This document shows positions 5,607-34,985 of a DNA stretch of 64,000 nucleotides, piece by piece. A program made the position numbers and the translations under genes. How positions within the stretch are numbered: position 1 is the stretch's first letter; every line of letters starts with the position of its first letter. The notes under the pieces were generated by a model. It saw only the letters and a program-made list of their open reading frames with translations. It had not been told where the DNA came from and did no database searches. Source of the DNA: a virus (lineage: Duplodnaviria; Caudoviricetes). The stretch covers positions 64,001 through 128,000 of IMG/VR virus record IMGVR_UViG_3300017766_003100; one strand, given 5' to 3'.

Positions 5607-6491
5607 ATGTTAGATTTATTTAATTTTGCGGATACTAATTACAATACCCAGGTCTTTATGAGAACTGGAGAATGGGAAACTTGGTACAAACCAAAAGGTT
5701 GTAAATTCGTTTTTTTTCTAACACTTGGTGGTGGTGCTGGAGGTGGTGGAGGACAATCAGGTGCTGCTGCGTCAACTCGTACAGGAGGCGGAGGAGGTGG
5801 TAGTAGTGCTTTAACAACACTATTAATGCCCGCAATAGCCATACCAAATAAATTAAGTATATCGGTTGGAATTGGTGGAACTGGTGGAAGTGCTGGAGGT
5901 AATGGAACTGCGGGAACTAATAGTTATATTTCAGTGTATCCTCAAAGTAGGTCAGTACAAAATCAAATTTTAGCGAGTAGCACTTCAAATAATATAGGAG
6001 GAACAAGTGCGGGTACTGGAGGTGGTGCGGCTAACGCATCCGCTTTATCCGAATGTAGACTAAGTGGTCCTGGTATTATTAATAGTATCGCGGGACAAGC
6101 AGGTAGTGCTGGAGGAGCTACGAGTGGTTCTGGTATTGTTGTAAATAGACCTATAAGTGGTGGTGCTGGTGGTGCGGGTATTATAGGGTCAGGCCCATTA
6201 GCTGGTGGGACTATACAAGTAGGCGGATTTATACCAAATATTAATACACCAGCAGGTGCTGGTAGGTCAGGGTTAGATGGATTTAATGGATTTACCCCAT
6301 CTTCATTAATATCAACAAAATTACCATTATTTTTTACAGGTGGCTCTGGAGGCAATAGTATTGATAGTGGAACAGGAGGAAATGGTGGAAATGGTGGATT
6401 TGGATGTGGAGGAGGTGGTGGTGCTGCAGGTACTACTGGAGGAAGAGGTGGAAATGGAGGTAATGGTTTAGTAATAATAACTTGTTGGTAA
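5607..6491 (+). CDS. Glycine-rich protein, paralogue 2
   Basis: Same architecture as 4706-5602; ends GG.GG.GLVIITCW. Confidence 0.7.
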   Translation: MLDLFNFADTNYNTQVFMRTGEWETWYKPKGCKFVFFLTLGGGAGGGGGQSGAAASTRTGGGGGGSSALTTLLMPAIAIPNKLSISVGIGGTGGSAGGNGTAGTNSYISVYPQSRSVQNQILASSTSNNIGGTSAGTGGGAANASALSECRLSGPGIINSIAGQAGSAGGATSGSGIVVNRPISGGAGGAGIIGSGPLAGGTIQVGGFIPNINTPAGAGRSGLDGFNGFTPSSLISTKLPLFFTGGSGGNSIDSGTGGNGGNGGFGCGGGGGAAGTTGGRGGNGGNGLVIITCW

Positions 6492-6495
6492 ATAT

Positions 6496-7403
6496 ATGAT
6501 AGATTATAACAATTTAACAAATATAGATAAAAATATTTCTGTATTCACCACAGTAGGTGCATCAGTTTGGCAGACTTGGCAAAAACCAAAAGGATGTAAA
6601 TTTGTACAATTTCTTGTAATAGGAAGTGGTGCTGGAGGTGGTGGAGGTAGGTCAACTACAGGTAACAGAGGAGGTGGTGGTGGTGGCGGTAGTTCGGCAA
6701 TTAGTAAATTATTTATTAGTGCTAATTTGATACCTGATGTATTATATGTTTTAGTTGGGGTTGGGGGTAATGGTGGTACTGCTGGTAATTCAGGTAGTGT
6801 TGGTCAGGTGTCTTATGTATCAGTTCAACCTGATTTAAGTCTTTATAATGTTTTAATTGGGAGTAGTAATACTCAACCAACTGGAGGTGTTGGGTCAGGA
6901 GGTAGTGGTGGTGGTGGCGGTGGTACAGGTGCTGCCGCTTTTGTACAGGGTACGGGGATACCTAGTTATAATGGTATTTTTACTTCAAATGTGGGTGTAA
7001 ATGGTGGTGGAGGTGGTTCGGCTGGTACTGCGGGGGTATCGATATCAATAGCAAATATTGTAACAGGTGGAGCTGGTGGTGGTGGAGCTAATACTTCAAT
7101 AGGGTTAGCTGGAGGTAACATCACAGGTAGTGGGTTTGTCCCAACCATATTAGGTGGTACTGGGGGTACTTCAACAAGTGGGTCAGGAAATGCGGGTTTT
7201 GGGGAATATAGAATGTGTGATTCATCAAGACCTCAAAGTATTTTTTTACAGGTGGTGCTGGTGGTGGAGCTAATGGTTCTGGAAATGGAGGTAATGGTGG
7301 TAATGGCTCTTATGGATGTGGAGGAGGAGGTGGTGGTGCAGGTTTAATTGGTGGAAGTGGCGGAAAAGGTGGAGATGGTTTGGTAATAATAACTTGTTGG
7401 TAA
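6496..7403 (+). CDS. Glycine-rich protein, paralogue 3, with a one-base frame break near 7241-7247 (frameshift, phase variation or assembly error)
   Basis: The zero frame stops at 7347 with an aberrant Val/Met/Glu tail. The -1 frame (open from 7221) encodes FFTGGAGGGANGSGNGG...GLVIITCW to TAA 7401-7403, matching the C-terminus of paralogue 2. Confidence 0.75.
6628..6683 (+). repeat. 56-nt direct repeat, copy 2
   Basis: Identical to 4838-4893. Confidence 0.9.
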
Positions 7404-7415
7404 TATTTATGACAT

Positions 7416-7949
7416 ATGCCACATCAAATATCAATATCAGCAGTTACAGGAACACCCCCATATTCAATCACAGTTTGTGATACCACATTAGTTTATTGTT
7501 ATTTAATAACGGGGTCAACTACTATTCCACCCACATTTACGTTTGATGTACCACCACCATTAGATGTTGCGGATAGTGTTATTGTTAAAGTTATGGATAG
7601 TAATGGATGTGAAATATTTTTACCATATTCTTGTCCTCCAACACCTACACCTACTCCAAGTTTTACTCCAACACCAACACCTACACCAACTGGAACTTGT
7701 AGATGTATTCAAGTTACAAATACGGGAACAACTGGAGGAACATTTTATTATACTCAATGTGATGGAACTATAACAAGTGTTTTACCAATCAATTCTGGAA
7801 CAACATTATATTATTGTGGAACTAATCCAATAGCATTAACCGAATGTGACATTTATATTGGTGACAATTGTGTTAGTAATAGTTGTGTAAGTATTACACC
7901 AACACCCTCAGTAACACCAACAATTACTCCTTCACCAAGTAGTCCATAA
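7416..7949 (+). CDS. Cys-rich protein with mucin-like Pro/Thr repeats, probably virion-associated
   Basis: PTPTPTP tracts at 7635-7691 and 7896-7946; many Cys; TATTTAT motif at 7404-7410. Confidence 0.6.
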   Translation: MPHQISISAVTGTPPYSITVCDTTLVYCYLITGSTTIPPTFTFDVPPPLDVADSVIVKVMDSNGCEIFLPYSCPPTPTPTPSFTPTPTPTPTGTCRCIQVTNTGTTGGTFYYTQCDGTITSVLPINSGTTLYYCGTNPIALTECDIYIGDNCVSNSCVSITPTPSVTPTITPSPSSP

Positions 7950-8008
7950 AATTTATATTTAATATATCCTTTTATTTTGATTTTTTTATTTTTTAAATAA
8001 AAATAAGA

Positions 8009-9259
8009 ATGTCAACAATATTTGTACAAATAGCCTCATTTAGAGACCCCCAACTCAATCCAACCTTAGAAGATTTAATATCCAAAGCAAAATACCCTAA
8101 AAAACTTAGAATTGGTATTTGTAATCAATTTAATGAAAATGATGAATTTAATCTTGACCATTATAGAAAGGATAAAAGATTTAGAATTATTGATGTAAAA
8201 GATATAGATTCACCAGGTGTTTGTTGGGCAAGAAATCAAGTTCAACAATTATATTCAGGAGAAACATATACATTACAAATTGATTCCCATATGAGATTTG
8301 AACAAGATTGGGATGAAATATTAATTAATATGTTAAAAGACCTTCAATCAAAAGGATATCCAAAACCTTTGTTGACTGGTTATGTCTCATCATTTGACCC
8401 AGATAATGACCCACAAGGTAGAGTAACTGAACCTTGGAGAATGACATTTGATAGATTTATTCCTGAAGGTGCTGTATTCTTTTTACCCGAAGTTATTCCA
8501 AATTGGAGGGAATTAAGTGGGCCAATTCCCGCAAGATTCTACTCAGCACATTTCTGTTTCACATTAGGTGAATTTAGTAATGAAGTTCAACACGACCCTG
8601 AATATTATTTCCACGGAGAAGAGATATCTGTTGGTGTTAGAGCATTCACCCACGGATATGATTTATTTCATCCACACCGAGTTATTATTTGGCATGAGTA
8701 TACAAGAAAAGGAAGAACCAAACAATGGGATGTTGATAAAGTTTGGTTTAAGAAAAACGAAAAATCCCATGCAAGAAATAGAAGATTATTCTCGATGGAT
8801 GGTGAAGTATATAATCCTGAAGAATTTGGTAAATACGGATTTGGTACTGAAAGGACTTTAGAAGATTATGAGAAATATGCAGGTATAAAGTTTAATAGAA
8901 GGGGTGTACAGAAATATACAACGGATAAAAACTATCCTCCTAATCCATATAATTTTGAAACTGAGGAAGAATACTTAAATAGTTTTGCAAGTGTATTCAA
9001 ACATTGTATTGATGTTCATTTTGGTCAAGTACCTGAAAAGGATTATGATTTTTGGGTTGTAGCATTTCACGATAATAAAGACGAAACGATGTTTAGACAA
9101 GATGCTGATATCAATGAAATTAATAGAGTTTTACAAGACCCTGATGGTTATTGTAAAATATGGAGGGAATTTAATACCATAACAAAACCATCTTATTGGG
9201 TTGTGTGGCCACACTCAAAATCAAAAGGATGGTGTGATAGAATAACAGGTAATTTATAA
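8009..9259 (+). CDS. GT60-like (GlcNAc family) polypeptide GlcNAc-transferase
   Basis: Motifs IFVQIASFRD, LQIDSHMRF (DxH), FHGEEIS and RAFTHGYDLFHP, recalled as characteristic of the Skp1/mucin GlcNAc-transferase family. Confidence 0.75.
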   Translation: MSTIFVQIASFRDPQLNPTLEDLISKAKYPKKLRIGICNQFNENDEFNLDHYRKDKRFRIIDVKDIDSPGVCWARNQVQQLYSGETYTLQIDSHMRFEQDWDEILINMLKDLQSKGYPKPLLTGYVSSFDPDNDPQGRVTEPWRMTFDRFIPEGAVFFLPEVIPNWRELSGPIPARFYSAHFCFTLGEFSNEVQHDPEYYFHGEEISVGVRAFTHGYDLFHPHRVIIWHEYTRKGRTKQWDVDKVWFKKNEKSHARNRRLFSMDGEVYNPEEFGKYGFGTERTLEDYEKYAGIKFNRRGVQKYTTDKNYPPNPYNFETEEEYLNSFASVFKHCIDVHFGQVPEKDYDFWVVAFHDNKDETMFRQDADINEINRVLQDPDGYCKIWREFNTITKPSYWVVWPHSKSKGWCDRITGNL

Positions 9260-9261
9260 AG

Positions 9262-9945
9262 ATGAAAGAAATATATAAAATAATTCATAATTTTAAAATT
9301 GATAAAAAGTTTTGGACTTATGATAATTTAACTGGAGAAGATTATGATTTCAAACGTTCAAAACCTGCACCATATTTAAAAGTTGCAATTCAGATTGCCA
9401 AGTTATTAAATTTAAAATCAGTAGTTGAGATAGGTTCAACTAGATTTGCGGTAACTCAAAAGTGTATAGATTATTATAATTCTGAAAATAACGCTTTTTT
9501 ATCCCCACCATGTTGTTGTGATGGTCATGGAGGATTCTTTTGGACTGAAGCGGGATTTGATGTTTATACTGTTGATATTGATACTAATTGTTTAAATGGT
9601 ATAAATTGGTCGTATAGTAACTTAAATAGAAATAAACCATCAAATCTACAAGTTAATATTCCAAAAGATGGGATTGAATTTTTAAATGAATTCAACAAAA
9701 ATATTGATGTGTTATTTTTAGATGGGTGGGACAAAGGTACACCTAATTACGCTGAAAAACATTTAGAAGCTTATTTTGCCGCTAAAGATAAACTTTCAGA
9801 TATAAATTTAATTTTAATTGATGACACTGATTATATAACAACTGATGGTGGTAAAGATATGTTATTATCACCAATTTTATTAGATGAGGGATATATCCCA
9901 TTATTTAACGGAAGACAAACATTATTTTTGAAATGGAACAAGTAA
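9262..9945 (+). CDS. Putative class I SAM-dependent methyltransferase
   Basis: SVVEIGS (motif I-like), YTVDID, DVLFLDGWD and ILIDD patterns typical of small O-methyltransferases. Confidence 0.55.
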   Translation: MKEIYKIIHNFKIDKKFWTYDNLTGEDYDFKRSKPAPYLKVAIQIAKLLNLKSVVEIGSTRFAVTQKCIDYYNSENNAFLSPPCCCDGHGGFFWTEAGFDVYTVDIDTNCLNGINWSYSNLNRNKPSNLQVNIPKDGIEFLNEFNKNIDVLFLDGWDKGTPNYAEKHLEAYFAAKDKLSDINLILIDDTDYITTDGGKDMLLSPILLDEGYIPLFNGRQTLFLKWNK

Positions 9946-10685
9946 TAATAACATTAACAACAATACCCAATAGATTAAACACTACTAATGGTGGATTAAA
10001 ACCAGTAATAGATAAAATGTTAAATTTATCATATTCAAATTATGTAATTCATTTGAATATACCTGAAATTTGTAAAAAATCTGGTGAAAAATATATAATA
10101 CCACAATGGTTAACAGAAATTAATAATCCAAAATTAAAAATTTTTAGAACTGAAGATTATGGTTCTTTAACTAAAATACTTCCAACATTGATGAGATTGG
10201 ATAGGAATGATAATAGTGTTTTAATTACTATTGATGATGATTTAGAATACATTGATGGTTTCATTGAATATCATTTGGAAAAAAGAAAACAATATCCAAA
10301 TTCTGCTTTGGGATTTGCTGGGTTATCCGCTATTGATGGTAGTTGTCATTTTTGTACAACTTTAAAAAAAGATACAAGAGTAAAGATTTTAGAAGGATAT
10401 AAAACAATATCATATGTTAATAGTTTTTTCAAACAAGATTTTTTTGATGAATTTGTTGGTAAATCTTGGAGTGATGATATTATAATATCTGCTTATTTGG
10501 GGAAACATAATATTGAAAAAATTGTTATGAACTATAATAAGGATTCTGATTTCAATCCAAGAGTAGAATCTTTTCCAATTGTAGGTCATCTTCCAAATGA
10601 AAGGGGTGGTTGTTTTTGGTTTAGGAATGAAAACATAAATGACAATGCCGATATATGGTATAAACTTGGTTATTTAGAAAGATAA
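9933..10685 (+). CDS. GT-A-fold glycosyltransferase
   Basis: N-terminal VIITLTTIPNRL and DxD-containing ITIDDDLEY, plus SDDIIISAYL. Confidence 0.6.
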   Translation: MEQVIITLTTIPNRLNTTNGGLKPVIDKMLNLSYSNYVIHLNIPEICKKSGEKYIIPQWLTEINNPKLKIFRTEDYGSLTKILPTLMRLDRNDNSVLITIDDDLEYIDGFIEYHLEKRKQYPNSALGFAGLSAIDGSCHFCTTLKKDTRVKILEGYKTISYVNSFFKQDFFDEFVGKSWSDDIIISAYLGKHNIEKIVMNYNKDSDFNPRVESFPIVGHLPNERGGCFWFRNENINDNADIWYKLGYLER

Positions 10686-12358
10686 TGAATAAAATAACAT
10701 TAGTAACAGGATTATGGAATATTGGGAGAGATAAACTACAAGAAGGTTGGTCAAGGTCTTATCAACACTACTTGGATAAGTTCTCCCAATTATTAGAAGT
10801 TGATTGTAATTTAATTATTTTTGGTGATAATGAATTACAACAATTCGTTAATGATAGAAGAAATAATAACAATACTCAATTCATTTTAAGAAACTTGGAT
10901 TGGTTTACCAATAGTGAATTTTATCCAAAAATACAAAACATTAGACAAAAACCTGAATGGTATAATCAAGTTGGTTGGTTAAAAGATTCAACCCAAGCAA
11001 AACTTGAGATGTATAATCCTTTGGTTATGTCAAAAGTATTTTTATTACACGATGCAAAACTTTTGGATAAATTTGATTCAGAATATATGTTTTGGATTGA
11101 CGCTGGTTTAACAAACACAATTCATCCTGGTTATTTCACCCACGATAAAGTATTAGATAAATTACCAAAACATATTGGTGATTTTAATTTTGTTTGTTTC
11201 CCCTATGAAACAACAACAGAAATACACGGATTTGTCATTTCTGAAATGAATAGATTAACTAATTCAAAAGTTAATAAAGTCGCAAGAGGTGGATTCTTTG
11301 GTGGAAAGAAAGAAGTTATATCTGAAATAAATTCAATATATTATCAATTATTATCAGATACATTAAATAGGGGTTATATGGGGACTGAAGAAAGTATATT
11401 CACTTTGATGGTTTATCTATTTCCAAATTTGGTAACTTATTTTGATATTGAACCAAATGGATTGATGGGTAAGTTCTTTGAGGATATTAAGGTTGATAAG
11501 TTACAACCCAAAAAAGAAAAAAAATTAAATCAAGTTCAAAATAATACCTCAATAGATAAGGTGGGTTTGTATGTTATAACTTTTAATTCACCAAAACAAT
11601 TTGAAACTTTAATCCAATCTATGTTGGAGTATGATGCTGACTTTATAAACAAACCTAAAAAATTTCTATTAGATAATTCAACAGATTTAACAACAACACC
11701 AAGATATAAAGAGTTATGTGAACAATATGGTTTTGAACATATTAAAAAAGATAACCTTGGTATAATGGGTGGAAGAATATTTGTCGCTGACCATTTTAAT
11801 GAAACAGATTTGGATTATTATTTTTGGTTTGAGGATGATATGTTCTTCTATCCAAAAAATGAAACTTGTAAAAATGGTTTTAATAGATATGTTAAAAATT
11901 TATATAGGAAAAGTTTGGAGATTACTCAAAAAGAAAACTTTGATTTCCTCAAATTGAACTTTACAGAATTTTATGGTGATAATAATACACAATGGGCTTG
12001 GTATAATGTCCCACAAGATTTTAGACAAAAACATTGGCCGAATAATCCAAAATTACCACAGATGGGATTAGACCCCAATTCACCAAAAACTGAATTTAAA
12101 CATATTAAAACACATAAAGGTATTCCATATGTAAGTGGGGAAATATATTTGTGTAATTGGCCGATAATAATGAATAAGGAGGGAAACTATAAATGTTATT
12201 TGGAAACAAGATGGACGCATCCTTTTGAACAAACTTTGATGAGCTATTGTTATCAAGAAACAATTAAAGGTAATATTAAACCTAGTTTATTGTTATTAAC
12301 ACCAACTGAACATAATCGCTTCGACCACTATGATGGCAAACTTAGAAAAGAAAATTAA
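10685..12358 (+). CDS. Two-domain glycosyltransferase: HtrL/YibB (WlaTC)-like domain plus GT-A-like domain
   Basis: ITLVTGLWNIGR, YMFWIDAG and GGFFGG...GTEESI fit the HtrL family; the second half has LYVITFNSP and FWFEDD. Confidence 0.6.
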   Translation: MNKITLVTGLWNIGRDKLQEGWSRSYQHYLDKFSQLLEVDCNLIIFGDNELQQFVNDRRNNNNTQFILRNLDWFTNSEFYPKIQNIRQKPEWYNQVGWLKDSTQAKLEMYNPLVMSKVFLLHDAKLLDKFDSEYMFWIDAGLTNTIHPGYFTHDKVLDKLPKHIGDFNFVCFPYETTTEIHGFVISEMNRLTNSKVNKVARGGFFGGKKEVISEINSIYYQLLSDTLNRGYMGTEESIFTLMVYLFPNLVTYFDIEPNGLMGKFFEDIKVDKLQPKKEKKLNQVQNNTSIDKVGLYVITFNSPKQFETLIQSMLEYDADFINKPKKFLLDNSTDLTTTPRYKELCEQYGFEHIKKDNLGIMGGRIFVADHFNETDLDYYFWFEDDMFFYPKNETCKNGFNRYVKNLYRKSLEITQKENFDFLKLNFTEFYGDNNTQWAWYNVPQDFRQKHWPNNPKLPQMGLDPNSPKTEFKHIKTHKGIPYVSGEIYLCNWPIIMNKEGNYKCYLETRWTHPFEQTLMSYCYQETIKGNIKPSLLLLTPTEHNRFDHYDGKLRKEN

Positions 12359-12386
12359 AAAAGGGTGAGAAATCACCCTTTTTTTT
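12357..12386. terminator. Bidirectional intrinsic terminator
   Basis: AAAAAAGGGTGA-GAAA-TCACCCTTTTTT(TT) between convergent genes. Confidence 0.9.
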
Positions 12387-13908
12387 ATGATTTTATAAAT
12401 CGATATGTTGTATAATTTTTATCTGTCTCAACAACAATATTATAAACTCCAACACCAAAATTATCTAAACTTAACATTTCTATATTAGAAATCAAAAATA
12501 TATTAGGTCTTGAATAAACTAACTGACCCATATTATTATAAATTTTTAAATTAAAAGTTTCACCCTTAACACTAAAATTTTCTAATATCAAATTATTATC
12601 TTTTGTGTAAATAAGAACATCATTTAATTTTGGGTCATTTATTGCAACCGCGGATATGTCAGAATATAACATTTGACCATCTTCAAACCATTTTAATCTG
12701 TAATAAGTAAATCCATTTGGTTTGGGAAAATTGTCATTAAAATCATAATATCTTTTTCCTAAGTTTGTGACATTAACAATACCAATAGAATCAAAATTAA
12801 TTCCATCTAATGATTTTTCAATAATAAACCCATCAATATAGTCATCAACAATAACATCCCAAGTTAAATAAACATCTTTATAATCTTTTCTATATTCGGC
12901 ATTAAATGATAATAATTCAAGGGGAAATAATACACAATCCAATGTTGCAGTACCACCAAATAATAATTGATAACCATTGCCAGTATTAGATAACCACTCA
13001 TCTACTACCAAATAATAAGTTTGACCTGCAGTTACATTCATTTGAGCTAAAAACCCATCTCCTGTAACACTTTCAACATTATCAACTGCTGTTGTATTTA
13101 ATCCAGTATTTCCAGTATTGCCTGAGTCTGAACATCTTAATGGAGTTCCCAAAGTACCACAAGTTACATTAGGACCATATATACTAAAGTCATAATCATC
13201 GGTATTTGTTTGTGGGTCAATTGTAAATCTAAGAGTACCACTAGATAATATTTCAAATTGATACCAATTAGAGTGGTTTTCACCACCAGCAGGACAAGTA
13301 GTACCAACACATCCTTCAGCTGTAAGTCCAGGTCCTCTTGCATTTACATTGGTTGTTATGTCTGAACAAATAAAAGTTGCTCTTGAGCAATCATTATTAT
13401 CTGTTATATTTGGGCCATTAGTAGGTGTTGCACAAGGGACACAAGACAATGAAGCACTCCATCCTGCGTCAGTTATTGACCCATCAGAAGTGAATCTAAA
13501 AGTTAAACATCCACTAGGATTGTTAGCTGTATATGTAAATGGTACGGCAGGTGCTCCTGAAATTCTACCATTTGGTACTGTGGCTGGAGGTGTTGTAAAT
13601 ACTGGTGAATTTTGGGTTGCACCATTACCTATGGTTAAAAAATCAAAACCAGTTTCAGTTCTAAATGAATTAAATGTCACCCTAACACAATTACCAGGGA
13701 TTGTTGGACAAAATACACGATAAAGTCCACCAAGAATACTATTTGAGTAGTTACCTCCAGCACCACCATTATCAAGATAAGTTCCACTACAAGTAGATAC
13801 TAAACAATTGGTAACTCTTTCTCCTTGAATACCTGTTGTACCATGTAGATAGGTTTGTGACCATAATAGGGAGGGAATAAAAATAAGTAGTAGTAAAATG
13901 TTTTTCAT
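12385..13908 (-). CDS. Secreted CUB-domain protein with a T9SS type A-like C-terminal sorting domain
   Basis: Signal peptide MKNILLLLIFIPSLLWS|Q. CUB-like segment (CSGTYLDNGG.GGNYSN...VRVTFNSFRTETGFDFLTI). Ig-like PLELLSF...YYRLK module. C-terminal IYNNMGQLV...GVYNIVV...RFIKS. Confidence 0.8.
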   Translation of the reverse strand: MKNILLLLIFIPSLLWSQTYLHGTTGIQGERVTNCLVSTCSGTYLDNGGAGGNYSNSILGGLYRVFCPTIPGNCVRVTFNSFRTETGFDFLTIGNGATQNSPVFTTPPATVPNGRISGAPAVPFTYTANNPSGCLTFRFTSDGSITDAGWSASLSCVPCATPTNGPNITDNNDCSRATFICSDITTNVNARGPGLTAEGCVGTTCPAGGENHSNWYQFEILSSGTLRFTIDPQTNTDDYDFSIYGPNVTCGTLGTPLRCSDSGNTGNTGLNTTAVDNVESVTGDGFLAQMNVTAGQTYYLVVDEWLSNTGNGYQLLFGGTATLDCVLFPLELLSFNAEYRKDYKDVYLTWDVIVDDYIDGFIIEKSLDGINFDSIGIVNVTNLGKRYYDFNDNFPKPNGFTYYRLKWFEDGQMLYSDISAVAINDPKLNDVLIYTKDNNLILENFSVKGETFNLKIYNNMGQLVYSRPNIFLISNIEMLSLDNFGVGVYNIVVETDKNYTTYRFIKS

Positions 13909-14011
13909 AATTCAATTTTTTTTAATTAATAAATGTTCGTTAAACAATATAGGTAATTTAAATGTCAATATAAATATGGTTATAATTTTTTATAAAAAAA
14001 TACCCAAACTC

Positions 14012-14042
14012 TTTGGATATTTATAAAGAACCCCTATCTTTG
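14012..14042 (+). promoter_or_regulatory. Bacteroidota primary-sigma-type promoter
   Basis: TTTG (14012-14015), 19-nt spacer, TATCTTTG (14035-14042), matching the -33/-7 consensus TTTG-N19-21-TAnnTTTG; a TATTTAT motif lies in the spacer. Confidence 0.65.
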
Positions 14043-14046
14043 TAGG

Positions 14047-14230
14047 ACAATAAATGGTTGATGACTTACCAATAAAAGTTAGGGTGATGAAAAATCATCG
14101 GTGGACGAAAAAGATACATAGGTAAAATACATCGTAAGATGGTGTCCATTGGCTCTCCAGTATAAAGCCTAACTGGCGAAACCTTGATGAGAAGTAGGAA
14201 GAAAGGATGACGTAATTGTCATCCTTTTTT
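14047..14230 (+). ncRNA. Candidate structured non-coding RNA (~185 nt), family unknown
   Basis: Bounded by the promoter and a terminator; less AT-rich than the flanking intergenic DNA; several helices; only a 23-codon ORF. Confidence 0.4.
14202..14230. terminator. Intrinsic terminator
   Basis: AAAGGATGAC-GTAATT-GTCATCCTTT followed by T residues; may also serve the convergent minus-strand gene. Confidence 0.8.
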
Positions 14231-14813
14231 AATTTTTAATGGGATTACATTTTTGATATTTTTTATCATTAAATTTTTCTCCTTTCAATTGTGTCACCAT
14301 AATAATGTCATATAATCTTTTACCTGAAAAATTTTTTTGTATTTTAATTAGATTCGTATATTCAAGGTCATTATTAAATGTTATTAACTTTAAACAAATT
14401 ACCCTCTCCGACCAATTAAAATTTTGTATGTAATTAGTTATTTTACCCATACTTGAAAAAAGTAAATCAATTCCTTCAGTTGTTGTTGGGTCAACAATAT
14501 TTGGGTTATTTTCGTATTCAGGTTCTTTTTTTCTATCTAATCTTTGTAACCAATGGTCTGAAGGTTCAATAGTAAACCCCATTTTACTATTGGTATCATA
14601 ATAATATTCATCACCATTATTTTGATTTATTTGATTATAATGAGATTCAATATAATCTAACACATCATTCTCTTTGTCCACATCAATTTTAACTGTGGCA
14701 ATACCTTCGGTGAGGATTAGATATTTTTTTAATTCATAAAAACTAATTTGTTCAACTATTGTTTTTTGAGTAAAAAATTCCTCAATTAATATTTTTCTTA
14801 TCAAATTTCTCAT
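14229..14813 (-). CDS. Hypothetical protein with N-terminal MRNLIRKILIEE motif
   Basis: 194-aa ORF; TATTTAT on the minus strand at 14820-14826. Confidence 0.6.
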   Translation of the reverse strand: MRNLIRKILIEEFFTQKTIVEQISFYELKKYLILTEGIATVKIDVDKENDVLDYIESHYNQINQNNGDEYYYDTNSKMGFTIEPSDHWLQRLDRKKEPEYENNPNIVDPTTTEGIDLLFSSMGKITNYIQNFNWSERVICLKLITFNNDLEYTNLIKIQKNFSGKRLYDIIMVTQLKGEKFNDKKYQKCNPIKN

Positions 14814-14859: not shown

Positions 14860-16785
14860 ATGGAATTTTTTATAAAGAAGAACGCAACGTTACCTCTTCT
14901 TAAATTACAAGTGGTTAAGAATGGTAGATTGGACTACAACAACTTTATGAGTTTGATAGAACAATCCGCTTTATTTTTTTCTATGGTTGATACAGAAACT
15001 GGCGTTGAAAAGATTGTTTCAAGACCTGCAGGGTTTGTTGAGAAGACGAATGTTGACCCAAATACTGAAAAGGAATATTATCTGTATTATCAATTCCAAA
15101 ATAGAGATACAAATAGAGTTGGTAGATATGAAGGCCAATTTATGTTAAGAAATTCTGATGGTGTTTTAATATTACCCATTAGAGAAAAATTATATATAAA
15201 TGTTCAAGAATCTTATATTGCTGATGATTTGGAATATGATTCTTGTTACATATCTGAATTTCCTTGTTGTGTTAACGGACCTACAACTGCAATTACAATA
15301 AATTTAAATATAGTAAGTGTTGTTACGATTAGTTCAGTAAAGGTTGATTATATTGTAACATCTTCTGATATATTAACAGACACACTAACATTAAATTTTA
15401 CAAATACTTTAGGACAATTAGTTGGAACTGGTCTAACAATTTCAACAGGTATTACAATAAATGCGGGGTCAAATATTGGATTTGGTGAGGTTATATTACC
15501 TGATGATTATTATAATTTGGATGGAACTTCAAAATTTAGTAATATTTCGGTTGTTTATCCAATAGCTTACAATTTTGTGGAATCATTTAATACAATATTT
15601 CCTCCACAGCCAACACCCACACCATCACCAGTACAACAAATAATTGACGCAATTTTAACTGATGAAACTGATGTATATATTGAGGTTGGTAGTGATGAGT
15701 ATTTAAGTTATGTTGACCCTAATTTAATATATAATGTTAATGTTTACGTGACTAGTGGTTCAATTGTTACTTACTTTACAGTTACTAGTAACATTCCAAT
15801 TAATCAAAATGTTTCATTATTAGTTAATACAAAATTATATTTAATTGGTGGGGGAAGTATTGATATTGGTTCAACGGTAATAATTTCATCGAATCAAACT
15901 ACAGGTCAAACAATTACAACAAATCCATCTCTTAACTATTATTCACTTGATAGGAGTGGTGAAATATTTGTAACATCACCTGATATTGATTTTCCATTCA
16001 CCATTCTAGCTGAACCACTTCAGTTTGAACAGGAACCAAGTCCAACTCCTACGCCTACTATAACACCAACACCTACACTAACACCTACACAGACTCCGAC
16101 ACCAACACCAAGTCCAGTACTTAACCCATTTATATCTGTTTGGAGAACAACAAAACCAAGTGCAGTAATTTCATTACCATATAATCCAAGTGGTAATTAT
16201 AGTGGTACTATTGATTGGGGTGATGGGACAATAACCCCAAATGATTTTGCAAACAAAAGTCATACATATGTTGACGCTGGTGATTATATTGTAACTATTA
16301 ATGGAATTATTGATGGTTTTAGTTTCCAATTATTTAGTTCAGGTGGAGTAGGTAACTTAATTGAAATTACACGTTGGGGTTGTTTAGAAATTAGGGATTT
16401 AGGTGGGGTTTTTCAAGGTTGTATTAATTTAGTTTTGACTGGTGTTACGGATACCCTAAATTTGGCGGGTGTAACAACACTACAAAATATGTTTAATAAT
16501 TGTATTAGTATTACAACTATTAATAATCTTGATTCTTGGGAAGTTAGTGGTGTTACTAATATGAGTTCTATGTTTTATGGGGCAACATCATTCAATCAAG
16601 ATATATCAAGTTGGGATGTCAATAATGTTACTAATATGGGTAATATGTTTCAAAACGCAACCACATTCAATCAAGATTTAAGTGGTTGGTGTGTAACAAA
16701 TATACCAAGTTTACCAACTAATTTTGACTCAGGTGCTACATCTTGGGTATTACCAAAACCAGTTTGGGGAACTTGTCCCCCATAA
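14860..16785 (+). CDS. Modular virion protein: BppU-like N-terminus, Pro/Thr linkers, PKD-like segment, BspA/DUF285-type repeats
   Basis: MEFFIKKNATLP.LKLQV N-terminus; PT tracts at 15601-15630 and 16036-16116; IDWGDGT...HTY...G.Y; repeats FNQDISSWDVNNVTNM..MF. Confidence 0.65.
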   Translation: MEFFIKKNATLPLLKLQVVKNGRLDYNNFMSLIEQSALFFSMVDTETGVEKIVSRPAGFVEKTNVDPNTEKEYYLYYQFQNRDTNRVGRYEGQFMLRNSDGVLILPIREKLYINVQESYIADDLEYDSCYISEFPCCVNGPTTAITINLNIVSVVTISSVKVDYIVTSSDILTDTLTLNFTNTLGQLVGTGLTISTGITINAGSNIGFGEVILPDDYYNLDGTSKFSNISVVYPIAYNFVESFNTIFPPQPTPTPSPVQQIIDAILTDETDVYIEVGSDEYLSYVDPNLIYNVNVYVTSGSIVTYFTVTSNIPINQNVSLLVNTKLYLIGGGSIDIGSTVIISSNQTTGQTITTNPSLNYYSLDRSGEIFVTSPDIDFPFTILAEPLQFEQEPSPTPTPTITPTPTLTPTQTPTPTPSPVLNPFISVWRTTKPSAVISLPYNPSGNYSGTIDWGDGTITPNDFANKSHTYVDAGDYIVTINGIIDGFSFQLFSSGGVGNLIEITRWGCLEIRDLGGVFQGCINLVLTGVTDTLNLAGVTTLQNMFNNCISITTINNLDSWEVSGVTNMSSMFYGATSFNQDISSWDVNNVTNMGNMFQNATTFNQDLSGWCVTNIPSLPTNFDSGATSWVLPKPVWGTCPP

Positions 16786-19651: not shown

Positions 19652-22372
19652 ATGATATCACAAGAACAAATTGAAATGTTCCTTAATGGGAACGACCCCG
19701 AACAATTTATCGTAGCAGTAGAATACGATTACGCAACAGATTCCGTTTTTAAAATCAAAGAAATTCCTGGTAAAGGAAAAGAAATAAGAAAAGACACATT
19801 CACAGCCTTCGCTTGGGTTGGTGATTTACACGGTCTTAATTTCTATAAGTCATCCAAAGGTCTTCAAAAAGAAGCGATGATAAAACACGGAATCCTAATA
19901 GAAAAATTACAAACTGGTGACAATGAAAGATTGGAAAATGGACTTAAATTTATGGTTAAGTCCCTTAAAGGTTATAGAAATCTAATCCAATTCTTTAAAG
20001 AAGGTGGAGTTGACCCTTGGGGTGAAAAAACCAAGGATTTAATATTAGTTCTACCTCCAGTTGAACAATACCTTATCCAAAAAGAAAAAAGATTATTTAA
20101 AGGTTATGAAGAATACAATGATGTAACAAGATTTGGATTCGACTTAGAAACTACCTCTTTAGAACCTAAAGATGGTAGAATCTTTATGATTGGAATCAAA
20201 ACAAATAAAGGATTACAAAAAGTAATCGAATGTTCCAACGAAGACCAAGAAAGAGCTGGTTTAGTAGAATTCTTTAGACTAATTGATGAAATTAAACCAA
20301 GTATTATTGGTGGATACAATTCATTCAACTTCGACTGGTATTGGATTATGGAAAGATGTAAAGCTCTACATTTGGATATTAAAAAGATTTGTAAGACTCT
20401 ACATCCTGAATATAAATTTAAACAATCTAATGGGATGTTAAAGTTGGCCAATGAAGTTGAATCCTTTAATCAAGTTAGTATGTGGGGATACAATATTATT
20501 GATATTCTACACTCAGTTAGAAGAGCACAAGCAATCAATTCAAATATCAAATCAGCTGGTCTTAAATATATTACCCAATATATCAATGCTGAAGCCAAAG
20601 ACCGAGTTTATATTGACCACTTGGATATTGCACCATTCTATTCAAAAAAGGAAGAGTATTGGTTGAATATTGAGAATGGTAAATATAGAAAAGTGGGAGT
20701 TGACCCAAAGATTGATGTTGTTTGTGAAAAACATTCAAATGTTTATATCAAAACAACTGGAGATAATCTTGTTGAGAGATATTTGGATGATGACTTGGAA
20801 GAAACCCTTAAAGTGGATGAAGAATTCAATCAAGGAACATTTATGTTGGCATCAATGATTCCAACAACTTATGAAAGGGTTTCAACTATGGGAACGGCAA
20901 CACTATGGAAAATGTTGATGTTGGCTTGGTCTTATAAATATAAATTGGCAATTCCACAGAAAGAACAAAAGAAAGATTTTGTAGGAGGGTTATCAAGACT
21001 ATTAAGAGTTGGTTATTCCAAGGATGTATTAAAACTTGACTATTCTTCTCTATATCCATCAATACAATTGGTTCACGATGTATTCCCTGATTGTGATATT
21101 ATGGGAGCAATGAAAGGTATGTTATCTTATTTTAGAAGTGCTCGTATTAAATACAAGAACTTGGCAGCTGAATGGTATGATAAAGATAAGAAGAAATCTC
21201 TATCTTATGATAGAAAACAATTACCTATCAAGATATTCATTAACTCGATGTTTGGTGCGTTATCAGCACCACAAGTATTTGCGTGGGGTGATATGTATAT
21301 GGGTGAACAGATTACTTGTACAGGAAGACAATATCTACGTCAGATGTTAAAGTTCTTTATGAAGAAGGGTTATACACCACTTGTATGTGATACAGATGGT
21401 ATGAACTTCTCATTACCTAAAGGTGGTGTTGATGACAGAGTATATGTTGGTAGAGGATTAAATTGGAAAGTTAAAAAGGATAAAGAATACAAAGGTTATG
21501 ATGCTGATGTTGCTGAGTTTAATGATACATTTATGAGGGGTGAGATGGCGCTGGATTGTGATGGTACTTGGAAATCTTGTATAAACTTGGCAAGAAAGAA
21601 CTATGCAACAATGGAACATAATGGTAAAGTTAAACTTACAGGTAATTCAATCAAATCCAAAAAACTTCCATTATATATTGAAGACTTCTTGGACAAAGCA
21701 ATCAAACTTTTATTGGAGGGTGAAGGTCAACAATTTGTTGAGTGGTATTATGAATATCTTACAAAGATTTATAATAAAGAAATCCCACTCCTTAAAATTG
21801 CACAAAGAGCAAAAGTTAAATTGAGTATTAAAGATTATATTGATAGGTCAAAACAAACTACTAAATCAGGTGGTGCTATGTCTAGAATGGCTCATATGGA
21901 ATTGGCCATTAAACACAATCTAAAAGTTAATCTTGGTGAAGTAATCTATTATGTTAATAATGGAACTAAAGCAAGTCACGGAGATGTACAAAAGAAAAAG
22001 GATGAAATATTATTGAATTGTTATATGTTAAATTCAAATGACATTGAAAATAATCCTGATATGACAGGTGAATATAATGTTGCGAGAGCTATTACAACAT
22101 TTAATAATCGTATTGAACCTTTATTGATTGTTTTCAAACAAGATGTTAGAGATAACTTAATTGTTGATAATCCTGAAAAAAGAACTTTCTTTACAAGTCA
22201 ACAATGTGAATTGATTAATGGTGTTCCATTTGAAGAAAAAGACCAAGATAAAATTCAAGAAGACTTATTAGATTTAGAACCAAAAGAATTGGAGTATTGG
22301 GAAAAGAGAGGAATTGACCCCAACTATATCTATGACTTGGCAGAAGAAGGATGGGAAAGATATATTGATTAA
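19652..22372 (+). CDS. polB: Family B DNA polymerase with 3'-5' exonuclease
   Basis: ExoI FDLETT, ExoII YNSFNFDW, motif A LDYSSLYPSI, motif B KIFINSMFG, motif C CDTDG. Confidence 0.95.
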   Translation: MISQEQIEMFLNGNDPEQFIVAVEYDYATDSVFKIKEIPGKGKEIRKDTFTAFAWVGDLHGLNFYKSSKGLQKEAMIKHGILIEKLQTGDNERLENGLKFMVKSLKGYRNLIQFFKEGGVDPWGEKTKDLILVLPPVEQYLIQKEKRLFKGYEEYNDVTRFGFDLETTSLEPKDGRIFMIGIKTNKGLQKVIECSNEDQERAGLVEFFRLIDEIKPSIIGGYNSFNFDWYWIMERCKALHLDIKKICKTLHPEYKFKQSNGMLKLANEVESFNQVSMWGYNIIDILHSVRRAQAINSNIKSAGLKYITQYINAEAKDRVYIDHLDIAPFYSKKEEYWLNIENGKYRKVGVDPKIDVVCEKHSNVYIKTTGDNLVERYLDDDLEETLKVDEEFNQGTFMLASMIPTTYERVSTMGTATLWKMLMLAWSYKYKLAIPQKEQKKDFVGGLSRLLRVGYSKDVLKLDYSSLYPSIQLVHDVFPDCDIMGAMKGMLSYFRSARIKYKNLAAEWYDKDKKKSLSYDRKQLPIKIFINSMFGALSAPQVFAWGDMYMGEQITCTGRQYLRQMLKFFMKKGYTPLVCDTDGMNFSLPKGGVDDRVYVGRGLNWKVKKDKEYKGYDADVAEFNDTFMRGEMALDCDGTWKSCINLARKNYATMEHNGKVKLTGNSIKSKKLPLYIEDFLDKAIKLLLEGEGQQFVEWYYEYLTKIYNKEIPLLKIAQRAKVKLSIKDYIDRSKQTTKSGGAMSRMAHMELAIKHNLKVNLGEVIYYVNNGTKASHGDVQKKKDEILLNCYMLNSNDIENNPDMTGEYNVARAITTFNNRIEPLLIVFKQDVRDNLIVDNPEKRTFFTSQQCELINGVPFEEKDQDKIQEDLLDLEPKELEYWEKRGIDPNYIYDLAEEGWERYID

Positions 22373-31397: not shown

Positions 31398-34300
31398 ATG
31401 GCAAATACAAAAGTTTTCGTATCACCAGGTGTTTATACTTCCGAAGTTGATTTAAGTTTTGTATCACAAAGTGTTGGTGTCACAACATTGGGTATTGTAG
31501 GGGAAACATTAAAAGGTCCTGCATTTGAACCAATTTTCATCAGAAACTTTGATGAGTTTACAGCTTTTTTCGGTGGTACATCTCCTGAAAAATTTATTAA
31601 CACACAAATACCAAAATATGAGGCATCATATATTGCAAAGGCTTATTTGCAACAATCCAACCAATTATTTGTAACTAGAATATTGGGATTGTCAGGTTAT
31701 GATGCGGGTCCTTCTTGGTCTATAACTACTGTTGCAAACGTTGACCAATCTACGGTTGGTTTTGAATGTTCAAGTGCTACAACAGCAAATTGTGTTTCTC
31801 AATGTGTTGAGTATACAATTGTTGATTACACTATTGATTTTACTGGTTGTACAAACGACTCAAGTACAATATCATTTACATTCAATTCAAGTTCGGATAT
31901 TTTAACACCTGATTTTAATTCATCATACGAATTATTTAATGGAACAACATCAATTATTTCTAATGATTTAAAAAATCAAATTTCTCAAGTAATGAGTACT
32001 CCATCTAGTTCGGCTTACTCAATAAATTATTTTGGTGTAATTTCAGGAGGTACTTATGATTCATTATCAGCATATACTGCAAGTACAAATGTATTTGGTG
32101 TTGACAATGTAAGTTCAGATTTAGCTGATTATACTGCACCAATTAATGATACTTGGTATTATGCTACCTTTGATAATATTGGTGGTGGTGATTATTCAGG
32201 TTATTCATTCTATAGTACGATTACTGGTTTAACTGAAACATCAGCTTTATCAAATTGTGCTTCATTCTATAGTTTTGAAGTTAGTTCAACAACAATTAGT
32301 ACTGTGGTTGGGGCAATTAACTATAACACTAATACAATTAGTATTTGTTTACCATCAACAGCAACTACTGCAGATTATTCAGCAATGACCGTAACATTTA
32401 GTGCTTGTACAACTGAAAGTTTAAGTGGCGTAAGTAGTAATGGGGTTGTTCAATCAGCAATCACAGAAAATGTAAACTTTAGTGCATTAACTAAGTCTTA
32501 TACAATAACATCTGATGATTTAACGGCTACTTCTGCTTGGACAGTGAATGTAACAATAACAGACCCTTGTGGACTTTGTTCTTCAGGTAATACAGGTACA
32601 ATACAATCAGGAACAACAACTTATTGTTATAGTGGTACTGTAATGGGTAAAATATTTGTTTACACTGGTGATTCTTATACTAATTACGATGACTTAGTAA
32701 TTGCTACACTTCGTTCAAGAGGTATTGCAACATATAGTAATGATAATGGTGCAGTTTATGAGGTTCAAGATTTAAATGGTGTTTCACTTGATTGTACTGG
32801 TTCTTACTCAGCGGTAACTAAAAATCCTTTTTCAACATTTGGTGTAAATGTTACAAGTAAAGATGGTGACACTTATTTCTTTGAAACATCATTCTCTAAT
32901 TCTAATGTAAATTACATAGGAAAAGTTTTTGGATATTCAAACTTTGCAAAACCAAGAACTGTAGTTCCTCTATTCTTAGAAGAAAGATTCCAAACTTTAT
33001 TAAATTATGGATATAGAAAAGGTTACATTAGAGGTTTAAGTTGTGACTTAACTGCATTACCTGAGTCAAGAAATGGAGATTCTACTTCAATTGGTTGGTA
33101 TATGGAACAATATCAATCACCTGAATCACCTTGGGTTGTTTCTGAATTAAGAGGTAATAAAGTATTTAACCTATTTAAATTTATAACAATAGCTGATGGT
33201 GAATCTGCAAATACTGAAGTTAAAATTTCAATCGCTAACATTTCATTTAATAATGGGACATTTGATGTATTAGTAAGAGACTTTTTTGATAACGATTCAA
33301 ATCCAGTTGTGATTGAGAAATTCACTAATTGTACAATGAATCCAAACGAAAATAGTTTTATTGCTAAAAAGATTGGTACTAATGATGGTGAATATGAAAT
33401 GAATTCTAAATATATTATGATTCAAATCAACGAAGACGCTCCAATTGATGCTCTTCCTTGTGGATTTGAAGGTTACACATTTAGAGAATATGCTGGAGTA
33501 AAATCACCATTCCCAATTTATAAAACTAAGTACGATTTCCCTGGTGAAGTTATATACAATCCACCTTTTGGTTTAGCATCTGGTTCTGATGACGCAACAA
33601 GAAGTTCAGGTGATAACGTAAGAAGAACTTATTTAGGTTTATCTGATACACTTGGATATGATATTGATTTCTTTGGTTATAAAGGTAAACAAGTACCATT
33701 AAGTGTTTGTGATGATACATCAGGTAGTGATTGGGCGTTCAGAACTCAAGGTTTCCATATGGATATAAATGCTTCAGGTATTACAATACCTAACATTTAT
33801 ACATCAAGTGGTACATCTGCATTCCAAGTTGGTTCAGCACCATTTATTACAGACCCTGATAATGAATCAAATCCATATTACAGATTATTTGCACGTAAAT
33901 TCACTTTATTTGTAAATGGTGGTTTTGATGGATGGGATATCTATAGAGAATCAAGAACAAATACTGATAGATTTAGATTGGGTGGTGCAGGTTATTTAAA
34001 AGGTGCTTGTACATCAATAAGATACCCTAGTGCAACTGGTTTTGGAGCGTTCAAACGTATTACAGTTGGTAATAATAATCAAGATTTCGCAAACACAGAT
34101 TACTACGCTTACTTGTTAGGCCAACAAACATTTGCTAATCCTGAAGCTGTTAATATAAATGTATTTACTACACCTGGTATTGATTATGTAAATCATTCAA
34201 ATCTTGTAGAATCTGCAATTGAAATGATTGAATTTGATAGAGCGGATTCAATTTATATCTGTACAACACCAGACTACAATATGTTTGTACCTGTAACTAC

Positions 34301-34985
34301 AGATAACGCTGATTTGATTTACCCAACTGAAGCAGTTGATAATTTAGATACAGCTGGTATTGATTCTAACTATACTGCAACTTACTATCCTTGGGTTTTA
34401 ACAAGAGATACAGTAAACAATACTCAATTGTATATTCCACCAACAGCGGAAGTTTGTAGAAATCTTGCCTTGACTGATAACATTGCCTTCCCTTGGTTTG
34501 CTGCGGCAGGTTATACTCGTGGTATTGTAAATGGTATCAAAGCAAGAAAGAAACTTACACAAGAAGATAGAGATACCTTATATAAAGGTAGAATCAATCC
34601 AATTGCAACATTCTCAGACGTTGGAACTGTAATTTGGGGTAACAAAACTCTACAAGTTAGAGAGTCAGCATTAGATAGAATTAACGTAAGAAGACTTTTA
34701 CTTCAAGCACGTAAATTAATATCTGCAGTTTCTGTAAGATTATTATTTGAACAAAACGATGCTAAAGTTAGACAAGACTTCTTAGACGCAGTTAATCCTA
34801 TTTTGGATGCAATTAGAAGAGACAGAGGTTTATATGATTTCCGTGTAACAGTTTCTTCTGACCCTGCTGATTTGGATAGAAATCAACTTACTGGTAAGAT
34901 TTATATCAAACCAACCAAAGCATTGGAGTTCATCGATATTACATTCTATATCACTCCAACTGGTGCATCATTCGAAAATATCTAA
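31398..34985 (+). CDS. Contractile tail sheath protein with a large insertion
   Basis: VSPGVYTSEVD N-terminus; PWFAAAGYTRG; INPIATF...IWGNKTL; RINVRRLL C-terminal sheath motifs. Confidence 0.95.
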   Translation: MANTKVFVSPGVYTSEVDLSFVSQSVGVTTLGIVGETLKGPAFEPIFIRNFDEFTAFFGGTSPEKFINTQIPKYEASYIAKAYLQQSNQLFVTRILGLSGYDAGPSWSITTVANVDQSTVGFECSSATTANCVSQCVEYTIVDYTIDFTGCTNDSSTISFTFNSSSDILTPDFNSSYELFNGTTSIISNDLKNQISQVMSTPSSSAYSINYFGVISGGTYDSLSAYTASTNVFGVDNVSSDLADYTAPINDTWYYATFDNIGGGDYSGYSFYSTITGLTETSALSNCASFYSFEVSSTTISTVVGAINYNTNTISICLPSTATTADYSAMTVTFSACTTESLSGVSSNGVVQSAITENVNFSALTKSYTITSDDLTATSAWTVNVTITDPCGLCSSGNTGTIQSGTTTYCYSGTVMGKIFVYTGDSYTNYDDLVIATLRSRGIATYSNDNGAVYEVQDLNGVSLDCTGSYSAVTKNPFSTFGVNVTSKDGDTYFFETSFSNSNVNYIGKVFGYSNFAKPRTVVPLFLEERFQTLLNYGYRKGYIRGLSCDLTALPESRNGDSTSIGWYMEQYQSPESPWVVSELRGNKVFNLFKFITIADGESANTEVKISIANISFNNGTFDVLVRDFFDNDSNPVVIEKFTNCTMNPNENSFIAKKIGTNDGEYEMNSKYIMIQINEDAPIDALPCGFEGYTFREYAGVKSPFPIYKTKYDFPGEVIYNPPFGLASGSDDATRSSGDNVRRTYLGLSDTLGYDIDFFGYKGKQVPLSVCDDTSGSDWAFRTQGFHMDINASGITIPNIYTSSGTSAFQVGSAPFITDPDNESNPYYRLFARKFTLFVNGGFDGWDIYRESRTNTDRFRLGGAGYLKGACTSIRYPSATGFGAFKRITVGNNNQDFANTDYYAYLLGQQTFANPEAVNINVFTTPGIDYVNHSNLVESAIEMIEFDRADSIYICTTPDYNMFVPVTTDNADLIYPTEAVDNLDTAGIDSNYTATYYPWVLTRDTVNNTQLYIPPTAEVCRNLALTDNIAFPWFAAAGYTRGIVNGIKARKKLTQEDRDTLYKGRINPIATFSDVGTVIWGNKTLQVRESALDRINVRRLLLQARKLISAVSVRLLFEQNDAKVRQDFLDAVNPILDAIRRDRGLYDFRVTVSSDPADLDRNQLTGKIYIKPTKALEFIDITFYITPTGASFENI

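Follow-up and report, generated by a model that had tools for sequence, protein, structure and literature searches.

The window studied here, a 64,000-nt stretch of phage DNA (positions 64,001 to 128,000 of the IMG/VR virus record IMGVR_UViG_3300017766_003100), carries a four-gene operon at 8009-12358 that opens with a homologue of the GT60 polypeptide glycosyltransferases. We propose that this operon encodes a cytoplasmic system for mucin-type O-glycosylation of proline-threonine (PT) linkers in the phage's own fibre-like proteins, a reading to which we give a probability of roughly 0.6. It builds on the family and fold of the enzymes, the lack of membrane segments and signal peptides in the gene products, a conserved gene pair that frames an exchangeable cassette in related phages, and the co-occurrence of GT60 genes with PT tracts.

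A GT60 homologue heads a four-gene operon

The operon comprises the following features:

8009-9259, + strand: gene 1, 416-aa GT60-family polypeptide N-acetylhexosamine (HexNAc) transferase homologue, putative initiator
9262-9945, + strand: gene 2, first gene of a variable cassette, 227-aa probable class I S-adenosylmethionine (SAM)-dependent methyltransferase, sugar O-methyltransferase-like
9933-10685, + strand: gene 3, second gene of the variable cassette, 250-aa predicted GT-A glycosyltransferase (GT2/GT45-like), KfiA/heparosan-synthase-like
10685-12358, + strand: gene 4, 557-aa predicted bifunctional enzyme, HtrL_YibB-like GT-A domain plus second GT-A domain
10685-11509, + strand: gene 4 N-domain (aa 1 to ~275), HtrL_YibB-like GT-A (PF09612)
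11552-12355, + strand: gene 4 C-domain (aa ~290-557), DxD-type GT-A with E383-D384-D385
12357-12384, both strands: bidirectional intrinsic-terminator-like hairpin with a 12-bp stem, ending both the operon and the convergent gene 12385-13908

The junctions between the four genes are a 2-nt gap, a 13-nt overlap and a 1-nt overlap, and the coordinates together with the shared hairpin agree with a preliminary description of this DNA, made from its letters and reading frames, that spoke of four abutting or overlapping genes under one terminator. Neither transmembrane segments nor signal peptides were found in any of the four products, in the 177-aa protein encoded just upstream or in a 641-aa PT-tract protein encoded further downstream (both described below). 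The enzymes are predicted to be soluble, and the system is putatively cytoplasmic.

By profile, motif and predicted fold, gene 1 is a clear member of GT60. It matches the Pfam family GlcNAc (PF11397) with 246.4 bits (cut-off 21; E=7.6e-73) and covers phrog_24687 end to end. Among 33-35 homologues with identities down to 30%, its D92-S93-H94 motif keeps D92 and H94 throughout and S93 almost throughout. The AlphaFold2 (AF2) model of the protein (pLDDT 91.7) has Dictyostelium Skp1 Gnt1 as its top Swiss-Prot fold match (E 6.9e-25, TM-score 0.65, 26% identity), followed by an unbroken run of polypeptide N-acetylgalactosamine (GalNAc) transferases of family GT27; against solved structures, the first 39 fold matches are all polypeptide GalNAc-transferases. 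The hidden Markov model (HMM) search that had been suggested for this gene, together with the motif and the fold, bears out its initial description as a GT60-like enzyme with a DxH motif. Sequence and profile searches of the PDB with genes 1, 4 and 2 returned nothing useful. The C-terminal ~120 residues of gene 1 (about aa 297-416) are beta-rich, extend beyond the Pfam model and might form a targeting domain.

All characterised members of GT60 act on polypeptide acceptors. Dictyostelium Gnt1 targets one hydroxyproline (Hyp) in a folded protein, and the Golgi members initiate mucin-type O-glycans on Thr/Ser-rich domains (PMC8724618). Set beside the GT60 enzymes in CAZy (Dictyostelium Gnt1 and Golgi pp-alphaGlcNAcT2, and Trypanosoma cruzi OGNT), gene 1 belongs to the same PF11397 family and has the same D-x-H motif and GT-A fold. 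Like Gnt1, its product appears soluble and has no signal anchor; unlike the protist enzymes, it is phage-encoded and carries the additional ~120-aa beta-rich C-terminal region. It probably also differs from Gnt1 in its acceptor: a Hyp acceptor is unlikely because five complete GT60-positive phage genomes encode no prolyl 4-hydroxylase of family PF13640, and a Hyp-linked, Skp1-type acceptor was dropped as the leading model for this reason.

Candidate extending and modifying enzymes

Gene 4 matches HtrL_YibB (PF09612) over residues 3-252 with 61.1 bits (cut-off 24.1; E=1.7e-16), and is not a YibB equivalog (TIGR02192, 62 bits against a cut-off of 265). Its AF2 model (pLDDT 88.7) contains two GT-A domains separated by a disordered linker (residues 280-288), as had been expected from its description as a fusion of HtrL with a GT-A enzyme. 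The N-domain resembles Escherichia coli HtrL (P25666; TM-score 0.69), and the whole fold resembles tandem GT-A enzymes such as collagen LH3, mimivirus R699, K4CP, LARGE1, heparosan synthase and Dictyostelium PgtA. Over its full length, gene 4 is 42% identical to gp300 of phage Xoo-sp13.

Two side observations concern this family. In six relatives (L003, at 12096-14480, L054, L055, L067, L070 and L076) the gene 4 homologue is ~790-800 aa long and has a third, N-terminal domain. Weak homologues of the HtrL-like domain, with 22-31% identity, occur in the Synechococcus phages Bellamy, SynMITS9220M01, B3/B23 and DSL-LC02, one of them adjoining an annotated glycosyltransferase.

The preliminary assignment of gene 3 to the GT-A enzymes is upheld by its family profile, which matches residues 301-495 of Pasteurella heparosan synthase B (E 8.5e-9) and E. 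coli KfiA (E 8e-4). In addition, five of ten gene 3 homologues match Glycos_transf_2 (PF00535), D101-D102-D103 is invariant, and the Atlas language-model feature search gives a score of 0.99. All three transferases of the operon (genes 1, 3 and 4) have a GT-A fold. Gene 2 is probably a methyltransferase. The Atlas search alone places it with SAM-dependent methyltransferases, as had been suggested (0.95 to Methyltransf_24/CmcI/TylF-type clusters). E56-I57-G58 and D105-x-D107 are invariant; its Pfam matches are sub-threshold (E>=0.06 at best), and there were zero matches among PDB profiles.

A conserved frame encloses an exchangeable cassette

A scan of IMG/VR for relatives of gene 1 confirmed 164 stretches, of which the best 80, on jumbo-phage contigs, were examined. 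In nearly all of the 80, the GT60 gene shares its strand with a gene 4 homologue, from which 0-6 genes separate it; seven loci have no gene in between. The intervening genes form 39 clusters. Cassette families in these relatives include CmcI-type rhamnosyl O-methyltransferases, FkbM methyltransferases, GT25 and GT34-like transferases and HtrL-like paralogues. One such paralogue (cluster c0) stands immediately before gene 4 in 30 loci and recurs in the Xanthomonas phages XacN1 and Xoo-sp13, and a carbamoyltransferase occurs in the cassettes of Xanthomonas phages. Profile comparison of genes 2 and 3 with the 39 clusters (hhalign) found no counterpart, and gene 2 showed no relation to the cassette methyltransferases of the relatives. 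A separate scan detected gene 3 homologues in 16 contigs, all inside a GT60/HtrL cluster and usually beside a gene 2 homologue, with the order of the two genes reversed in L224. Neither the four operon genes nor representatives of the 20 commonest cassette clusters had a Pfam match to a priming phosphoglycosyl transferase, a flippase or a polymerase; families of a lipid-carrier pathway (Wzx/Wzy or ABC) and transmembrane segments are likewise missing from the operon.

The cassette bears signs of having moved independently of its surroundings. Nucleotide homology between the window and relatives 93-94% identical to it stops at 9259-9267 and resumes at 10673-10694. These are the exact borders of genes 2 and 3, at which the cassette is swapped. 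In the more diverged contig L221 (4330-5747, matching 9262-10685 of the window), genes 2 and 3 are 84% and 80% identical to ours, compared with 73% for the flanking GT60 gene and 69% for gene 4; a cassette closer to the window than its own flanks is the signature of exchange between diverged phages. Genes 1 and 4 are a conserved frame, and the genes between them are an exchangeable, hypervariable cassette whose turnover suggests selection for surface variety.

The same module occurs in unrelated cultured phages

A search of 50,697 GenBank phage records found close homologues of gene 1 (45-50% identity) together with full-length gene 4 homologues (40-42%) in four phages only: XacN1, Xoo-sp13, RAS14 and CM1, all of them jumbo phages of Xanthomonas or Stenotrophomonas. 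Gene order and strand agree with those of the window. The window's DNA polymerase, used as a query, found nothing in these four phages, and despite this they share genes 1 and 4; the module is therefore common to unrelated phage lineages and host phyla. Since it is kept across phages of very different hosts, its acceptor must be common to them. In the cluster of these phages (ORF334 to ORF330 in XacN1), the same GT60 gene and HtrL plus GT-A fusion enclose a cassette made up of a carbamoyltransferase, an HtrL paralogue and a 247-aa protein. In the Xanthomonas phages, none of the genes in the middle resembles gene 2 or gene 3, the methyltransferase-like and KfiA-like genes that the window has instead.

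Purified XacN1 virions are reported to contain at least two Schiff-positive glycoprotein bands. [quoted passage not shown] These bands and the digestible DNA are the only experimental evidence that bears on the present case, and they favour protein over DNA as the target.

PT-tract proteins are candidate acceptors

Two proteins encoded close to the operon carry PT tracts:

7416-7949, + strand: candidate acceptor, fibre-like; 177-aa Cys-rich protein upstream of gene 1, with a virus-only N-terminal domain of ~73 aa
7635-7694, + strand: (PT)n linker of the 177-aa protein (aa 74-93)
7896-7946, + strand: PT/PS tail of the 177-aa protein (aa 161-177)
14860-16785, + strand: second candidate acceptor; 641-aa modular protein with an N-terminal module of ~130 aa, PT linkers and C-terminal DUF285/PARCEL repeats
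15601-15633, + strand: PT linker 1 of the 641-aa protein (aa 248-258)
16036-16119, + strand: PT linker 2 of the 641-aa protein (aa 393-420)

Both proteins had been picked out beforehand for their PT tracts, which lie where they had been placed: the 177-aa protein directly precedes the operon, and the 641-aa protein has its two linkers. The name BppU-like that had been given to the latter did not survive, as only its DUF285/PARCEL repeats were matched. The (PT)3 codon pattern was counted four times in the window and not once in 100 shuffles.

In the 177-aa protein a second Cys-rich domain lies between the PT linker and the PT/PS tail. Its N-terminal domain is found only in viral proteins, is N-terminal in 45 of 45 open reading frames (ORFs) of 72-1526 aa, and was detected in 44 of 75 testable related loci; in 26 of the 75 the ORF ends no more than 150 nt upstream of the GT60 start. 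Phage fibres are usually built in this way, their N-terminus conserved and their distal part variable, and by this analogy we infer that the 177-aa protein is fibre-like. The glycine-rich proteins encoded next to it match tail-fibre PHROGs. The ~73-aa domain is absent upstream of the clusters in XacN1, Xoo-sp13 and RAS14, and is therefore not required for the enzymes to work.

As to the 641-aa protein, its N-terminal ~130 residues (14860-15282) are conserved and are here extended through the PT linkers to the PARCEL repeats. In most relatives this module is a separate gene of 125-190 aa (e.g. L003:16979-17423), located between the HtrL-fusion gene and the DNA polymerase gene.

Across phages, PT tracts accompany GT60. 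Whole records were scored for the (PT)3 codon pattern, and a reverse-read composition control gave 0 everywhere. The GT60-positive records had counts of 24, 39 and 22 (three complete relatives of the window), 31, 23 and 11 (XacN1, Xoo-sp13 and RAS14) and 11, 7, 10, 1 and 9 (five fragments with a minimal module). Among nine PF11397-negative controls, four of them Bacteroidota phages, the count was 0 in RaK2, phage G, Atu_ph07, phiKZ, Tenacibaculum PTm1, crAss001, Cellulophaga phi38:1 and phi14:2, and 1 in SCTP-2. The co-occurrence of the operon with PT-repeat genes, which the preliminary description had singled out as a check, thus appears as 11 of 11 GT60-positive records against one of nine controls (Fisher p = 7e-5, with relatedness ignored). 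Approached from the other side, 8 of 32 viral contigs (>=36 kb) chosen only for a (PT)5 tract contain PF11397, a family that is otherwise rare among 2.9 million contigs, and five of these eight have no gene 4 homologue.

PT proteins also lie near GT60 genes in divergent phages. Two of the five contigs that lack gene 4, L216 and L218, encode a GT60 protein sharing ~40% identity with gene 1. Two genes downstream of it lies the gene for a ~540-aa protein (L216:11218-12846, L218:12027-13634) in which four long linkers of the type (PT)9-13 string Cys-rich domains together like beads, and copies of the 73-aa viral domain flank this gene. In a third of the five, L219, whose GT60 is 68% identical to gene 1, a PT-tract protein is encoded right next to it. 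The (PT)3 matches of XacN1 were checked in ORF180, ORF190 and ORF232, where they are in frame as Pro-Thr codons; its tracts lie in the paralogous family ORF232-237 and in ORF325, ORF350, 370, 372 and 384. ORF325 (3313 aa) adjoins the baseplate wedge gene and lies ~3 kb from the cluster, and a few of these PT-tract ORFs have weak PHROG matches to 'virion structural protein'. A conserved initiator and extender need a conserved acceptor, and PT tracts are the one obvious feature that these phages share.

The phage, its host and neighbouring genes

The G+C content of the window is ~30%. Its genes include those for a tail sheath (31398-34985), a DNA polymerase that is family-B-like (19652-22372), helicases, a ribonucleotide reductase, a recombinase and a DNA methyltransferase (55674-56681), from which we conclude that it is part of a large myovirus. 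Its closest relatives are IMG/VR contigs of up to 322 kb. Further features of the window are:

12385-13908, - strand: convergent gene, 507 aa, with a signal-peptide-like N-terminus and a type IX secretion system (T9SS) type A sorting domain
42649-42666, + strand: T6 run (aa 1050-1055) in the 1684-aa giant protein 39502-44556, with a weak, tentative link to the system
49138-49155, + strand: T6 run (aa 1423-1428) in the 2341-aa giant protein 44872-51897, with a weak, tentative link to the system

The T9SS type A domain of the convergent gene scores 23.9 bits (NCBIfam cut-off 23) and points to a Bacteroidota host; the gene is found in some close relatives only, and its product suggests export through the host type IX system during infection. 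A freshwater jumbo-phage lineage that infects Flavobacteriia and has several core glycosyltransferases has been described (PMC12619734), and it may be the same group as, or related to, the phage of the window. Thr runs had been noted in both giant "baseplate" proteins, and each has one T6 run; the baseplate label found no informative PHROG match.

A last observation concerns the fibre-like glycine-rich gene 6496-7347 upstream of the 177-aa protein. The last ~35 residues of its product resemble GGN repeats read out of frame, and from ~7241 the -1 frame runs on as a Gly-rich tail ending in ...GLVIITCW (region 6496-7409), in agreement with the C-terminus of the paralogue 5607-6491. The frames switch at the T7 run 7240-7246, which forms an in-frame U UUU UUA heptamer; the cause is either an assembly error in the homopolymer or programmed -1 frameshifting.

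Discussion

Based on this analysis we can outline how the system might work. In the cytoplasm of the infected cell, while virions are being assembled or earlier, the putatively soluble GT60 enzyme (8009-9259) would attach a HexNAc to hydroxyl groups of Thr (or Ser) in (PT)n linkers. By analogy with its family, this sugar would be alpha-linked N-acetylglucosamine (GlcNAc) with UDP-GlcNAc as the donor, and the linkers would be those of modular, fibre-like proteins that the phage itself encodes, for example at 7416-7949 and 14860-16785. The KfiA-like GT-A enzyme (9933-10685) and the two domains of gene 4 (10685-12358) could then add up to three more sugars, one of which the methyltransferase-like protein (9262-9945) would modify. 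Exchange of the cassette would diversify the glycan between otherwise near-identical phages. The glycans may stiffen the linkers, shield them from proteases or vary the surface; mucins and the glycosylated linkers of secreted glycoside hydrolases are the basis of the analogy for stiffening and protease protection. We are more tentative, at slightly under even odds, about the broader proposal that jumbo phages of at least two unrelated lineages carry an O-antigen-like, swappable glycan-serotype locus that builds mucin-type O-glycans on fibre (PT)n linkers.

Several points weigh against glycosylation of PT linkers. The acceptor, like any glycan on the proteins of this lineage, is one that we infer, and the XacN1 paper does not name the proteins in its glycoprotein bands (PMC5852040). 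The PT proteins of the window have no structural PHROG matches and are at most putative virion components. The link between PT tracts and GT60 is confounded by lineage, the GT60-positive set representing roughly two to four independent lineages, and four complete viral contigs that bear (PT)5 tracts have no GT60. In the minimal relatives, the gene upstream of GT60 consists of the 72-73-aa domain only, with no PT tract. The methyltransferase assignment of gene 2 is weak. Finally, a predicted complex of gene 1 and the 177-aa PT protein received a score of 0.00, and this counts neither for nor against the proposal.

Some of these points would equally suit enzymes that glycosylate another protein of phage or host, such as capsid or tail-tube subunits, the 73-aa N-domain or a host protein. 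Membership in GT60 implies a protein acceptor and not PT specifically, the best fold match, Gnt1, modifies a single hydroxyproline in a folded protein, and both the PT-less upstream gene of the minimal relatives and the unassigned XacN1 bands leave room for such a target. We nevertheless consider it unlikely, as PT tracts and GT60 also co-occur in the lineages that lack the 73-aa domain (XacN1, Xoo-sp13 and RAS14), PT-bead proteins lie near GT60 in divergent lineages, and the missing PF13640 argues against a Gnt1-like site. Less likely still is a role of the operon in remodelling a host envelope glycan (the outer core of lipooligosaccharide (LOS) or a capsule-like polymer), which would block superinfection or keep progeny from binding to debris. 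HtrL_YibB and GT25 are families otherwise typical of LOS core loci (PMC4172580), which also counts against glycosylation of PT linkers, and a hypervariable transferase cassette between conserved flanks resembles surface-polysaccharide loci. Against this, characterised GT60 enzymes have polypeptide acceptors only, and the frame of genes 1 and 4 is 42-50% identical across phages of Bacteroidota and Xanthomonadales, whose envelope glycans differ. Moreover, the cluster lacks matches to the priming, flipping and polymerising enzymes named above, and the phages are large, apparently lytic myoviruses rather than seroconverting prophages.

It is worth noting that a few kb separate the cluster from the DNA polymerase gene, both here and in XacN1 and Xoo-sp13, and that phage DNA glycosyltransferases are diverse (PMC12619734), as would fit enzymes that hypermodify phage DNA with sugars against restriction. 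We regard this explanation as very improbable: the GT60/GT27-type fold has no known DNA-modifying member, XacN1 DNA is digested by the three enzymes listed above, the window encodes an ordinary DNA methyltransferase, and a multi-sugar, methylated or carbamoylated glycan on DNA would need a hydroxymethyl-base pathway, for which no search was made.

Mucin-type glycosylation of PT linkers would resemble several known systems in part. A parallel in layout is the Skp1 pathway, where a cytosolic GT60 initiator (Gnt1) is likewise followed by one protein with two glycosyltransferase domains, the bifunctional PgtA. PgtA is a fold match of gene 4 at rank 16, in a list where all tandem GT-A enzymes match about equally, and this does not amount to specific homology. 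Skp1 receives one glycan at one Hyp, whereas the phage system has repetitive linkers of many proteins as its candidate acceptors and a swappable middle section in its pathway.

Among viruses, chlorovirus PBCV-1 (A064R and other proteins) uses cytoplasmic viral glycosyltransferases and methyltransferases to build a methylated glycan on its virion protein; it infects a eukaryote, and its glycans are atypical N-linked ones. Its enzyme set of glycosyltransferase plus methyltransferase is like that of the window, a comparison made by description and not by sequence, and the XacN1 authors drew the chlorovirus parallel for their own phage (PMC5852040). Mycobacteriophages are reported to carry glycans on the C-terminal tails of capsid and tail-tube subunits (Freeman et al. 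2023, cited in PMC12619734), and they, as we propose here, encode glycosyltransferases for their own structural proteins; in the account of them given in PMC12619734, GT60 and a PT-linker acceptor are not reported. LOS outer-core loci contain the same accessory families (PF09612 and PF01755) and vary in transferase content from locus to locus, but they have no GT60 initiator and act on lipid A-core. The system thus differs from the protist, mycobacteriophage and chlorovirus cases in its enzyme set, its acceptor type and its exchangeable cassette. A search of the accessible literature found no paper that links GT60 to phages, the XacN1 authors having made a general suggestion only.

In summary, glycosylation of phage particles is known from few cases only, and the present one, if true, would mean that a large group of jumbo phages, abundant in the environment, produces mucin-like glycoproteins by means of enzymes from a family characterised only in protists so far, and varies the glycan by cassette exchange, as bacteria vary their O-antigens. 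The idea can be tested directly in the cultured phages XacN1, Xoo-sp13 and RAS14/CM1, which have the homologous module. A virion glycocalyx that varies and is produced in the bacterial cytoplasm would have consequences for phage adsorption, for stability and for recognition by hosts and grazers, and a reservoir in prokaryotic viruses of the enzyme family that initiates protist mucin-type glycosylation would bear on the evolutionary origin of mucin-type O-glycosylation itself.

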